From a virus, in IMG/VR virus record IMGVR_UViG_3300009177_000720: a stretch of DNA of 64,000 nt. One strand, 5' to 3'. Shown piece after piece: positions 48,450 to 51,017 of this stretch; position 1 is the first letter of the stretch, and each line of letters starts with the position of its first letter. A program made the translations under genes and the position numbers. The notes under the pieces were generated by a model. That model did no database searches and was not told the DNA's origin. It saw only the letters and a list, made by a program, of their open reading frames with translations.

Positions 48450-48523
48450 TGGGGTCCATGTGGGAGTCGAACCCACGACCAGAGAATTTAGAGGTCTCTG
48501 CTCTGCCGCTGAGCTAATGGACC
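48450..48523 (-). tRNA. Amber-suppressor tRNA (CUA) #1
   Basis: GGTCCAT/ATGGACC acceptor, GCTC/GAGC D stem, loop CT-CTA-AA, GTGGG-TTCGACT-CCCAC T arm, then CCA. Confidence 0.85.
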
Positions 48524-48529
48524 TAATTC

Positions 48530-48643
48530 CTACTTGGTTTCTTCGGCTTGACGATTTTCCAAGTAATTCTCGGTTACGCGCCAAACAACGCCAACCACCG
48601 TACCAATAACAACAGAAATTCCAAACAATGTTAATACGACCAT
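48530..48643 (-). CDS. 37-aa single-TM peptide between the two suppressor tRNAs
   Basis: GAGG SD; MVVLTLFGISVVIGTVVGVVWRV...; TAG stop. Confidence 0.5.
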   Translation of the reverse strand: MVVLTLFGISVVIGTVVGVVWRVTENYLENRQAEETK

Positions 48644-48669
48644 GATAACCTCACTTACTTAATATATAG

Positions 48670-48741
48670 CGCTTCCGGGGAATCCTGACATCCCAACCGT
48701 GCGTTTTAGAGACGCCCGCTCTTCCTTTGAGCTACGGAAGC
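48670..48741 (-). tRNA. Amber-suppressor tRNA (CUA) #2 with non-canonical T loop
   Basis: GCTTCCG/CGGAAGC acceptor, G73, GCTC/GAGC D stem, GCGT-CTCTAAA-ACGC; T loop GTCAGGA; CCA not encoded. Confidence 0.72.
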
Positions 48742-48746
48742 AAAAT

Positions 48747-49169
48747 TCATCCATGTCCTTCTTGGGTTGGATCCCAACCTGCATGATTCTGAGGTCGACA
48801 TTCACCAGGACATTTAGAACAGATATTTCTAAACAAACCATACTCGCGTCTATTATGCTCCCAAATGCCCGCCAACTGAGCCTTGATATCTTTTTCTGAA
48901 AAAAGGTCGCCTAGTTCCTGCACCGCCTCAGTGTAAGCATCATCGTGCATGTGCGCAAGTTTAATGATAGCTTTACGTACACGATTCAAATCGCCTACAG
49001 CTAACATCTCTGCTCTTCCACAGCCCCAATGCCAATCAACATTTTGATCAGACTCTTTGGCCACAGCCTGTGTCCACTCTTCCATAAGCACAGAACTAAT
49101 GGTATGAGTTAAGAAAACAGTATGACCATGATCGTAAATTTCCTGATTACATCTAGCGGTACTCATCAT
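48747..49169 (-). CDS. Hypothetical protein
   Basis: ORF. Confidence 0.6.
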   Translation of the reverse strand: MMSTARCNQEIYDHGHTVFLTHTISSVLMEEWTQAVAKESDQNVDWHWGCGRAEMLAVGDLNRVRKAIIKLAHMHDDAYTEAVQELGDLFSEKDIKAQLAGIWEHNRREYGLFRNICSKCPGECRPQNHAGWDPTQEGHG

Positions 49170-49453
49170 CGATCTAACTCTTTATAATTTGGGTTCCAAC
49201 GATATTGGATATCAGATTCTATTTGTTTTTCTAACATCCCAGCAGTTACTAATTCATCCAGAAAATTGTAAAGAGCATTGCTGAGAGGATTGGAAGACCA
49301 CATGACGCCTTTGACGCCATGCCAATGGTCCTCTCCCGGAGGAGCGCCCATGTCTGGCCAGAATCCGAGACAGGCTCCCAAATGGAAGGCAGCGAGATCC
49401 CAGTCAGTCCAACCAGTTAATCTTTCTTTCAAATCAGCATTGCTCTTTAACAT
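49166..49453 (-). CDS. Hypothetical protein
   Basis: ORF with GAGG SD. Confidence 0.6.
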   Translation of the reverse strand: MLKSNADLKERLTGWTDWDLAAFHLGACLGFWPDMGAPPGEDHWHGVKGVMWSSNPLSNALYNFLDELVTAGMLEKQIESDIQYRWNPNYKELDR

Positions 49454-49464
49454 TTTTCCTCAAT

Positions 49465-49590
49465 TGGAGAGCCAGGTGGGATTCGCACCGCACATTCTCC
49501 AGTTTATCATAACTGGTGCTTCATCATCGGCTACTGTCTGCATATGCCACGTTCGCATACCGTTTTTCGCCCTCATTTAGCTACCGGCTC
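49465..49590 (-). ncRNA. tRNA-like RNA with a ~50-nt insertion in the D loop and an 8-nt anticodon loop
   Basis: GAGCCGG/CTGGCTC-T-CCA acceptor, TA-GCT...AGC, CCAGT-TATGATAA-ACTGG, bulged T arm. Confidence 0.65.
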
Positions 49591-49602
49591 TTAGATTCTA
49601 TA

Positions 49603-49947
49603 TCAACTTTTTAATGCAAGTTGAAGTCGGCTACACAACTTCTTACTCTTAGGTCCAGGGGCCAAAGCAATAGCTGTGATTTGATCCTCAATATCAGGTT
49701 CTCTAAAAATAGAAAATTTGATATCCTGTTGAACAGCCATTGAAATCAAATCTTGCAATTCAATTTCGTTGGCTACAGAAAGAAGACCTAGATAGTTTGA
49801 TTGCTCAAACCATTGTCGATCCACCTCGGGATGCTCGGCAGTAAACTGGCGCAAAGCATGCATTGACTGCACTGCTTGGTAGCCAGGATCCAAATCCGAA
49901 CGAGTAATCACATACAACTTATCGCCCTCTTTAATCTATAGAGACAT
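49603..49947 (-). CDS. Peptidyl-tRNA hydrolase, PTH2-like; in-frame TAG at codon 4
   Basis: KLYVITRSDL..GYQAVQSMHA...FREPDI..QITAIAL; AGGAG-N5-ATG TCT CTA TAG ATT in frame with the body. Confidence 0.75.
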
Positions 49948-50524
49948 TGTTACTCCTAAATAACTTTTGGCAAATAGCTTTGCCACGCTTGTTGATTTGA
50001 TTCCATTTGATTTTAAAGGAGGTGGAATCGGTACCCCCAAACATCTTAGCGTTGGCATGAACTTCAGCCAGCCCAGCTAGAAGAAGAGTGCAAGCTTCAG
50101 GATAAGTAATGAACTCATCGATGTCGCAAGCCTTCATGGTATGAATCATCATATCCATCTTCATAAGCTTGGCAGCCGCACAACTACCTCCCACTTCCAG
50201 CCATGTCTTGGATGAGATGTCAGCATGGTTAGGAAAATGAGTTCTACCATTCTCATCGATTGACTTACAATAAGGCTTACCACAATCGTGATAAATTGTA
50301 TACTCCTCGATGATATCCTGAGGCAGGAGGGCGCTAAGAATTTGTTGATTGTATTCCGAAAGCCAATCAGGCAATCTCCAGTCTCCTGTGATTTGACCGG
50401 TTTTCAAATAATCAATCAATTGAAAAATATGCTCTTTAACCGAGAGACCATGCTGGAAAATAGACTGGCCTTTGGCTTGTTCACATTGTTGCATGTCTTG
50501 GATGAGTTGAAGCTAGGAGGGCAT
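49931..50524 (-). CDS. HD-domain phosphohydrolase; in-frame TAG at codon 4
   Basis: SIFQHG...YHDCGKP...HFPNHADIS; GGAGG-N9-ATG CCC TCC TAG CTT in frame with MQQCEQ. Confidence 0.72.
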
Positions 50525-50525
50525 G

Positions 50526-50891
50526 TTAGAGTGCCTCCGATAGCCAAGCATTAACATCGGCTAATGTTGGGTTGTAGCTTCCAAGATGGGGTGCCCACTT
50601 TGGTGCATGTGCCTGAATAATTTGAAAGACCAAATCGGCTCTTGGAAGATTATCCTTAGCACATGCTCGCTCCACTGCATGATATGCCACGCCTCTCAAA
50701 AAGGCATAGGCTAGCAAGTGATGGCGGATATCAATTCCAACAACACGCTTGCGGGAAGCCAAGTTCCAAACGGCTTCTTCCTTCTTTGCTTTAAGAATAC
50801 GGTTCCTTGCTTTCCTTGATTCAATAGCAAGTCCCTTAATTTTACCAATCAATACAAACTTCGAATAACTGTGTTTCAGTGCGTTTTTCAT
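50526..50891 (-). CDS. Hypothetical basic protein (RHHLLAYAFLRG motif), first gene of the gated operon
   Basis: AGGAG SD then ATG at 50891 (MKNALK). Confidence 0.7.
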   Translation of the reverse strand: MKNALKHSYSKFVLIGKIKGLAIESRKARNRILKAKKEEAVWNLASRKRVVGIDIRHHLLAYAFLRGVAYHAVERACAKDNLPRADLVFQIIQAHAPKWAPHLGSYNPTLADVNAWLSEAL

Positions 50892-50995
50892 TTTACATCT
50901 CCTATAGTTACAAAACAAACAAATACGGTTAAGGTTTGTTTTAAACCAGGAGGTGCACGTGAACCAATCTATAGATAATCAGATAGCGTCTTCAT
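50888..50995 (-). CDS. Leader peptide MKTLSDYL*(UAG)IGSRAPPGLKQTLTVFVCFVTIGDVK with a RAPP arrest motif
   Basis: Read directly: TAG at 50971-50969, RAPP at 50959-50948, final TGA overlapping the next ATG. Confidence 0.7.
50894..50957 (-). promoter_or_regulatory. SD-sequestering hairpin (translational attenuator)
   Basis: TGCACCTCCT/AGGAGATGTA, GGTT/AACT and TAAAACAAAC/GTTTGTTTTG stems, ~23 bp. Confidence 0.75.
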
Positions 50996-51017
50996 CTTGT
51001 TCTTATATATCCAGTTA

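Follow-up and report, generated by a model that had tools for sequence, protein, structure and literature searches.

This analysis concerns a gene module at positions 51000 to 48450, on the minus strand, of a 64,000-nucleotide (nt) stretch of the viral record IMGVR_UViG_3300009177_000720. That whole stretch is hereafter called the window, and nearly all of its genes lie on the minus strand. The module contains a short leader open reading frame (ORF), an ORF for a basic protein, a gene for an HD-domain protein, a gene for a PTH2-like protein, a tRNA-like RNA, and two tRNAs with a CUA anticodon that are encoded 1 to 1.5 kilobases (kb) downstream of the ORFs carrying in-frame TAG codons. Three such TAG codons are present, one each in the leader, the HD gene, and the PTH2-like gene. 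A first-pass annotation, made from the letters of the sequence alone, had listed these elements, and all of them were found where it had placed them.

The leader mini-ORF (50969 to 50995) starts at ATG 50995-50993, continues for seven sense codons, and ends at TAG 50971-50969 (M-K-T-L-S-D-Y-L-UAG). Reading of this UAG would extend translation through a segment (50888 to 50968) that encodes I-G-S-R-A-P-P, with the R-A-P-P codons at 50959-50948, followed by 19 non-conserved codons. This frame closes at TGA 50890-50888, which overlaps the ATG of the basic ORF (50891). In the minimum free energy (MFE) fold, the two proline codons (CACCUCCU) are part of a hairpin (50894 to 50959) in which they are paired with the Shine-Dalgarno (SD) sequence AGGAGAU (50903-50897) of the basic ORF. 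In every lineage, the gene that first follows the leader is the basic ORF (50526 to 50891; 121 amino acids). The HD gene (49931 to 50524) follows with its ATG (50524) only 1 nt past the stop codon of the basic ORF and its SD sequence (GGAGG, 50538-50534) inside that ORF; it opens with ATG CCC TCC TAG, and its TAG (50515-50513) is followed by 193 codons. Finally, the PTH2-like gene (49603 to 49947) begins inside the HD gene, sharing 17 nt with its 3' end. It has an SD sequence (AGGAG) at 49957-49953 and opens with ATG TCT CTA TAG from ATG 49947, and 110 codons follow its TAG (49938-49936).

Relatives of the HD and PTH2-like genes were taken from IMG/VR contigs of up to 480 kb, and such relatives also occur in soil, sediment, and freshwater metagenomes. 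In all 17 distinct relatives of the HD gene (60 to 88% identity), an ATG is followed by one to six codons and a TAG, and the TAG precedes an invariant Met by seven codons. The six codons between the TAG and this Met change in the manner of coding sequence (x-x-L-I-x-D-M, with synonymous changes). Furthermore, in the AlphaFold model of the HD protein (predicted local distance difference test score, pLDDT, of 93.2), residues 2 to 9 after the TAG form a helix with a pLDDT of approximately 96.

An equivalent arrangement was observed for the PTH2-like gene, where 39 distinct relatives (38 to 92% identity) carry an ATG, zero to seven codons, and a TAG that is followed by I/V-K-x-G-D-K-L-Y. Changes after the TAG are synonymous or conservative. 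The two residues before the TAG, Ser or Cys followed by Leu, are preserved across codon families that are not related by synonymous change (TCT, AGT), and the codon immediately before the TAG is mostly one for Leu, commonly CUA. With the single exception of L094, the 39 TAG-bearing relatives have no ATG in the interval that separates the TAG from the domain, and TTG 49917 of the window is replaced in relatives by a Leu codon that is not a start codon (CTN or TTA). A sister clade without the PTH2 TAG begins M-A-T-I-K-x-G-D-K-L-Y. The first-pass annotation had recommended a search for conservation of the TAG codons in homologs, and the 17 HD and 39 PTH2 relatives do keep both the upstream ATG and the TAG. 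The three TAG codons of the window are therefore real, since the same codon positions are kept in relatives down to approximately 40% protein identity. Judged by sequence comparison, their conservation is far beyond chance.

The leader is conserved in a similar manner. An ATG followed by 2 to 12 codons and a TAG is kept in 33 distinct relatives, after which come one to six codons and R-A/G/S-P-P, often with a stop codon directly behind the motif. R-[A/G/S]-P-P is present in all 73 distinct leaders, approximately 46 to 76 nt before the basic ORF, and in leaders of the TAG type it is always in frame with the TAG. The Arg of the motif is written with both CGN and AGR codons, and none of the 73 distinct leaders has an ATG in the frame of the motif. 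These two features argue that selection acts on the peptide and not on the RNA alone. RAPP and RGPP are known as robust arrest motifs: RAP-peptidyl-tRNA and an A-site-bound Pro-tRNA form no peptide bond, the arrest is resistant to elongation factor P (EF-P), and the motifs are avoided in bacterial proteomes (PMC10951233, PMC12992588, PMC7897499). In addition, the Pro-Pro codons (CCUCC) double as the anti-SD sequence of the basic ORF, and they pair with its SD sequence in the MFE structures of the window and of 58 of the 67 distinct relatives. The peptide ahead of the motif has 11 to 15 residues, counting the UAG position, and includes no hydrophobic segment and no N-terminal signal.

The leader ATG has no clear SD sequence and sits 7 to 8 nt after a conserved element, GGATATATAA (50996-51012, minus strand), which also precedes the HD mini-ORF in relatives lacking the basic ORF. 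The mRNA may lack a leader altogether or carry only a very brief one, a possibility to be noted given that the phage encodes its own initiation factor 3 (IF3). Repeats of GGATATATAA in the window are not beyond chance, and scans for sigma-70 promoters and terminators returned background levels.

A second group of leaders has an ATG, 3 to 29 codons, and TGA-A-T-G/A, with R-G/A-P-P located in the +1 frame. When TGAAT[GA] was searched for without bias upstream of the Arg codon, the distance was 1 modulo 3 in 32 of 34 leaders, across eight spacing classes. Loci with UGAA leaders encode pairs of tRNAs with 8-nt anticodon loops of the form A(U/C)-UUCA-A(C/G), whose four-base anticodon is complementary to UGAA. 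From these sequences, the UGAA lineages look like a case of natural four-base decoding. UGAA is preceded by codons of several kinds (Leu, Phe, Ala, Gly, Thr, or Ile), and prfB-like slippage in the ribosomal P site is disfavored for this reason.

The type of leader and the type of tRNA are strongly associated. We cross-tabulated the distinct leaders for which an odd tRNA is present in the available stretch. Leaders with an in-frame TAG are accompanied by a CUA tRNA in 17 of 17 loci, which answers the suggestion of the first-pass annotation that co-occurrence of the two be examined. Leaders with UGAA and a +1-frame motif are accompanied by an 8-nt-loop UUCA tRNA in 19 of 20 loci, the other one having a UCA tRNA, and no crossed cases were found. 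The corresponding Fisher p value of 1e-10 is inflated by the relatedness of the loci. A tree of the basic protein (a quick tree with a midpoint root) forces at least two switches of leader type, and the tRNA type agrees with the leader type in the sampled members of separate clades. Because the signal changes together with the anticodon, the tRNA appears to be a required and specific partner of the leader.

Several observations on these sister lineages can be added. In the UGAA lineages (L062-L075, L113-L163; e.g., L071:6231-6384), the PTH2-like gene starts normally, with M-A-T-I-K. One locus (L131, approximately 350-415) has a leader with an in-frame TAA before I-Y-I-R-G-P-P and is too short to show tRNAs, and UUA-anticodon tRNAs are encoded in two other relatives (L075:7786-7861; L080:6463-6557). 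There may be an ochre form of the circuit.

Both CUA tRNAs of the window were evaluated with the Rfam tRNA model (RF00005; threshold of 29 bits) in a scan of the whole window and in a local scan. tRNA(CUA) number 1 (48451 to 48523, minus strand) was found by ARAGORN, scores 60.5 bits, and folds into a canonical cloverleaf with a C31-U39 mismatch; it shares 82% identity with the tRNA-Sup annotated in phage XacN1. tRNA(CUA) number 2 (48670 to 48741, minus strand) escaped both ARAGORN and the Rfam scan of the whole window and scores 39.9 bits (E value of 2.5e-6) in the local scan, with the anticodon loop CUCUAAA and a discriminator G. Most relatives carry one or two CUA tRNAs, and most genomes have two dissimilar tRNAs that share one odd anticodon (CUA or UUCA). 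Some CUA tRNAs of the relatives have U1-A72 and G73, as in tRNA-Gln, and others have G1-C72 with A73 or C73; in the window, both tRNAs combine G1-C72 with C73 or G73. Such tRNA pairs may serve as insurance across hosts or aminoacyl-tRNA synthetases. We also considered initiation at the UAG itself by an initiator-like tRNA(CUA) and rejected it: the SD spacing fits the upstream ATG, the inspected CUA tRNAs have a paired 1:72 position, the anticodon stems of the window's two tRNAs do not have the three G-C pairs, and the UGAA version would be left unexplained.

The TAG codons also extend to cultured phages. Homologs of the HD protein occur in 29 GenBank phage records, and all nine of the GenBank jumbo phages that were sampled have an in-frame TAG in the HD gene, the PTH2 gene, or both. 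The HD gene of RsoM2USA begins M-K-S-TAG, and phage record LR745206 has separate HD and PTH2 genes with a 5' TAG in each. Phages XacN1 (L166), Xoo-sp13 (L169), and CM1 (L172) encode an HD-PTH2 fusion that begins M-K-(K)-TAG, and pT24 (L167) encodes a PTH2-HD fusion that begins M-K-TAG. The fusions thus carry the TAG at codon 3 or 4 in both gene orders, and their existence suggests that HD and PTH2 work together. In GAP32 (L165:3115), CBB (L170), and Yen9-04 (L171), the two genes are separate, with M-x-x-TAG at the start of PTH2 (M-A-Q-TAG or M-S-H-TAG in this group of cultured enterobacterial jumbo phages) and a TAG at codon 47 of HD. In existing annotations, these HD and PTH2 genes begin at an internal Met or are broken into fragments, such that the HD stretch of GAP32 and CBB appears as two or three small ORFs. 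CUA tRNAs, either annotated or detected here, occur in XacN1, which has two, and in GAP32 and Yen9-04, where the tRNA lies 2 to 3 kb away. The authors of the XacN1 study could not identify genes targeted by its suppressor tRNAs (PMC5852040). A tblastn search of GenBank phages for the basic ORF with its leader did not find them.

Given the conserved anatomy of these loci, the frame relations in the leaders, and the covariation between signal and anticodon, we judge with good confidence that the module is a translational switch that reports decoding by the phage's own amber-suppressor tRNAs through three coupled gates. At the first gate, ribosomes would start at ATG 50995. Termination by release factor 1 (RF1) at UAG 50971 would leave the hairpin intact, with the SD sequence of the basic ORF paired to CCUCC. 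If a CUA tRNA reads the UAG instead, the ribosome would move three codons on into Arg-Ala-Pro-Pro and arrest there. The arrested ribosome would cover the anti-SD strand, the SD sequence would be freed, and the basic ORF would be translated. At the second and third gates, the HD gene (1-nt gap) and the PTH2-like gene (17-nt overlap) would be translationally coupled to the preceding gene, and each would need its UAG to be read at codon 4. Because a further UAG has to be read in HD and again in PTH2, output should rise steeply with suppressor activity. The TAG codons occupy N-terminal positions that probably tolerate any residue, in agreement with the occurrence of two distinct CUA tRNAs, whose identities may differ. 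The central idea of the first-pass annotation, a multi-layer switch dependent on UAG read-through and tied to the CUA tRNAs that the phage itself encodes, is thus supported by conservation of the TAG codons in every relative of the clade, by the coding character and helical fold of the HD residues behind the TAG, and by the joint switch of leader signal and tRNA anticodon.

A number of points weigh against this reading. We infer UAG decoding, arrest at RAPP on a short chain, and unmasking of the SD sequence, and the arrest would need to operate with a nascent chain of only 12 to 16 residues. The fold of the window hairpin has a z-score of just -1.7. RNAalifold retained only the four invariant CUCC:GGAG pairs among 28 TAG-type leaders, and the anti-SD:SD pairs never vary, such that covariation is silent on the hairpin; it cannot test the pairing because both strands are otherwise constrained. 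tRNA(CUA) number 2 has an atypical T loop. A cognate tRNA was not found in 15 TAG-type and 13 UGAA-type loci, for most of which the available contig pieces are short. The internal Met of the HD protein at 50494 is invariant in the 17 relatives, and a shorter HD product that is independent of suppression is possible on this account. The profile alignment suggests that the PTH2-like protein lacks the catalytic Lys that archaeal Pth2 has in its GKGK loop. Finally, searches with the basic protein gave nothing informative in Pfam, PHROGs, Foldseek against the PDB, VIA-align wide, the ESM Atlas, or tblastn against GenBank phages.

Four other explanations were weighed. The phage might be generally recoded for TAG (code 15), as are the Lak or crAss-like phages, in which case the three TAG codons would be among many sense TAGs. 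The presence of CUA tRNAs and the rarity of TAG as a stop codon would both be expected under such recoding. However, code-11 ORFs of at least 80 amino acids tile the strand of the window without internal TAG, and code-11 ORFs of at least 100 amino acids cover 88% of a complete 480-kb relative. In this relative, the pattern of an ATG, a few codons, and a TAG is not more common than its TAA or TGA equivalents, and no internal stops were found in the terminase genes of the four relatives checked. The phage uses the standard code and its genome is not recoded, as the first-pass annotation had held, and general recoding has next to no chance of being correct. TAG terminates 4 of the 89 window ORFs of at least 80 amino acids, close to the earlier estimate of 5 among about 90 genes, and accounts for 21 of the 523 stop codons in the complete relative. 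Because standard-code ORFs tile the strand, the 480-kb relative is densely covered, and the terminase genes lack internal stops, the amber codons are confined to the HD, PTH2, and leader module. A second explanation is that the mini-ORFs simply end at TAG, with HD made from ATG 50494 and PTH2 from TTG 49917, the leader acting only as an RNA anti-SD hairpin, and the CUA tRNAs serving elsewhere. Both internal start codons exist in the window, the HD Met is invariant, pairing with the SD sequence requires an unchanging CCUCC, and annotators of RsoM2USA, GAP32, and others did pick internal starts. The first-pass annotation had named such internal initiation as evidence that would count against its switch. 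For PTH2 this objection fails, since TTG 49917 is CTN or TTA elsewhere and no ATG stands behind the TAG except in L094. For HD it largely fails, despite the invariance of the internal Met, because the codons behind the TAG show coding-type substitutions and belong to the fold. In no case is the upstream ATG out of frame with the TAG. Likewise, the leader motif holds frame 0 with TAG or +1 with UGAA over many spacings while Arg codons of the CGN and AGR types alternate. We consider exclusive use of internal starts decidedly improbable.

The two remaining alternatives keep the stop codons at the center. Peptidyl-tRNA drop-off classically occurs on short ORFs in which a stop follows two to four codons, as in the bar minigenes of phage lambda, and the ATG-xx-TAG units could be minigenes of this type whose product, dropped-off peptidyl-tRNA, ties expression of PTH2 to the load of peptidyl-tRNA. 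The short ORF-stop context fits, one unit precedes a gene for a peptidyl-tRNA hydrolase, and the codon before its TAG is often one for Leu, commonly CUA. Yet minigenes offer no route to translation of the gene body behind the TAG and explain neither the frame rule of RAPP nor the UGAA/UUCA version, which makes this explanation very hard to sustain, although drop-off could act as an added layer when the suppressor is absent. The other possibility is that the quantity sensed is release factor activity, such that scarcity or inhibition of RF1 (or of RF2 for UGA) lets ribosomes pass the stop codons and the tRNAs are merely a constant partner. Every gate is a stop codon, read-through always varies with the balance between tRNA and release factor, TAG is avoided as a terminator in both the window and the complete relative, and autoregulation of prfB shows that release factor sensing exists. 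Against this, signal and anticodon change together, including the fourth base (UGAA with UUCA, TAG with CUA), and the P-site codons before UGAA vary, unlike those of prfB slippage. Sensing of release factor activity rather than of the tRNA is therefore unlikely, and it should be noted that it and the sensing of tRNA-dependent decoding are not mutually exclusive.

The proteins encoded by the module hint at what the proposed tRNA-reporting switch might control. The PTH2-like protein matches Pfam PF01981 with 28.2 bits (cutoff of 23), and its profile matches archaeal Pth2 structures 2ZV3, 1RZW, and 1WN2 across the entire domain (profile positions 6 to 106), with E values from 2e-9 (2ZV3) to 1e-6. 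We take the catalytic residues of Pth2 to be the Lys of the G-K-G-K loop and an Asp partner, as in the Sulfolobus enzyme. The hidden Markov model alignment places a two-residue gap and a Tyr or other residue at the archaeal GKGK, and E79 and D81 are invariant. Membership in the PTH2 family is thus supported by sequence, and hydrolase activity is putative.

In the HD protein, H75-D76 and several more His and Asp residues are invariant. It has no match in Pfam and matches phrog_14850. Its best fold matches are weak: tRNA nucleotidyltransferase structures 3WFO-3WFS (E value of 7e-3, TMq of 0.6), followed by the HD phosphohydrolases PgpH, 1XX7, and YfbR, and its profile matches 3WFP with an E value of 5e-3. 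The HD protein thus weakly resembles the HD-containing part of class II tRNA nucleotidyltransferase. The first-pass annotation had described the products as enzymes of tRNA recycling or repair; family membership bears this out for PTH2, and for HD the likeness to the nucleotidyltransferase is weak. The basic protein is modeled as a helical hairpin with a small domain (pLDDT of 93.7).

Other features lie between the PTH2-like gene and the CUA tRNAs, all on the minus strand. The tRNA-like RNA (49465 to 49590), which immediately follows the PTH2-like gene, is conserved, being kept at full length in at least nine distinct loci with compensatory changes in 12 of 30 pairs. It scores 28.2 bits with the Rfam tRNA model (49468-49540), just below threshold. 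The 7-base-pair acceptor stem of this RNA shows compensatory changes, U-CCA is encoded, and the D region, larger by approximately 50 nt, holds its own covarying hairpin. Its anticodon loop has 8 nt in the window (UAUGAUAA) and 7 nt in some relatives (UUGAUAA, with a GAU, Ile-like anticodon). Two ORFs of 95 and 140 amino acids (48747 to 49453) are found in only part of the relatives. A hydrophobic ORF of 37 amino acids (48530 to 48643) ends with a TAG located 6 nt before tRNA(CUA) number 1, and its placement 6 to 11 nt before a CUA tRNA is kept in several relatives. The idea that this TAG, through read-through into the tRNA, provides negative feedback is not supported, as the stop codon is TAA or TGA in all relatives.

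More broadly, the module is located in a replication and translation region of a huge phage. The window encodes DNA polymerase, SbcCD, UvsX, IF3, transfer-messenger RNA (tmRNA), four tRNA-Thr, and tRNA-Arg(CCT). The four tRNA-Thr represent all four isoacceptors, and the tmRNA tag is ANDNAFAPVALAA. Synteny around the module (window positions 46865-47490 and 53241-54178) is seen in most relatives, with three or four tRNA-Thr, tmRNA, the amber module, an HNH endonuclease, IF3, and tRNA-Arg(CCT). A blastn search of the module region against GenBank phages gave matches of tRNA size only. Three longer genes that end with TAG (stops at 26793, 34785, and 47796) have a second in-frame stop codon four to five codons on, a number too small for a test; such backup stops would limit damage from suppression. 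A candidate for a fourth gene with a 5' TAG (ATG GAA TAG ATG at 47833, before an ORF of 114 amino acids) was rejected because it is absent in nine relatives. This pattern is a by-product of the overlapping frame that encodes the C terminus of the HNH gene.

The proposed switch shares parts of its logic with several known systems. Like the RAPP/RGPP arrest peptides ApdA, ApdP, ApcA, and CruR, and SecM with its RAGP (PMC7897499, PMC10951233, PMC12992588), the leader is a short upstream ORF that ends in or near R-A/G-P-P, with the motif located just before a hairpin that hides the SD sequence of the next gene and that a stalled ribosome is expected to open. However, those are secretory or membrane peptides of 50 to 170 amino acids whose arrest is relieved by Sec or YidC activity or by a ligand, whereas the peptide described here is phage-encoded, has 12 to 16 residues, and lacks a targeting signal. 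Its motif would be reached only after UAG or the four-base UGAA is decoded, such that the input would be tRNA-dependent recoding. The prfB +1 frameshift (RF2) and the trpL and hisL attenuators are similar in that downstream expression is set by a cis-acting leader, in which the behavior of the ribosome at a special codon reveals how active a translation factor or tRNA is. In prfB, P-site slippage on CUU-U with an internal SD sequence senses RF2, and in the attenuators, pausing senses a shortage of charged tRNA and acts on a transcription terminator. In the phage module, by contrast, we propose that successful nonstandard decoding leads to peptide-mediated arrest and translational activation.

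Code-15 phages such as the Lak and crAss-like phages (bioRxiv 10.1101/2021.08.26.457843) also use their own tRNA(CUA) to read in-frame UAG, with the idea that this times expression. Sense TAGs are numerous in their genomes, mainly in late or lytic genes, and coding density under code 11 is low. The phages examined here use the standard code, with TAG at codons 3 to 9 of two or three translation-related frames beside the tRNAs, and add a dedicated leader sensor. Engineered switches for genetic code expansion likewise place an early UAG or four-base codon in a gene to make its expression need a matching suppressor tRNA (PMC6412442, PMC8481270). Those switches are man-made, and the one described here is natural, conserved over many phage lineages, and coupled to an arrest peptide. 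A full-text literature search found no published description of such a circuit.

The likely purpose of the module, and the least certain part of our proposal, is that a PTH2-type hydrolase, an HD hydrolase resembling a tRNA enzyme, and a basic protein are made only when, and in proportion as, nonstandard decoding is active. The module could manage the consequences of such decoding or tune the tRNAs themselves. In more general terms, it seems fairly likely that jumbo phages with the standard code carry a self-test circuit, in which an arrest motif reached only via an amber suppressor or a natural four-base-anticodon tRNA switches on the HD, PTH2, and basic protein set. The same proposal holds that UGAA represents natural, regulated quadruplet decoding and that HD and PTH2 are the targets of the suppressor tRNAs of XacN1 and GAP32. 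The idea can be tested directly because GAP32, CBB, Yen9-04, XacN1, Xoo-sp13, and RsoM2USA have been cultured.

Many standard-code jumbo phages carry suppressor tRNAs whose reading targets have so far been unknown, and our analysis names HD and PTH2 as conserved, probable targets and offers a plausible control logic for these tRNAs. It also links amber suppression and natural four-base decoding through one gene module. If the proposal is correct, the class of switches based on arrest peptides would gain a new input, namely tRNA-dependent recoding, and the compact natural parts involved, the leader and its tRNA, would be of interest for genetic code expansion.

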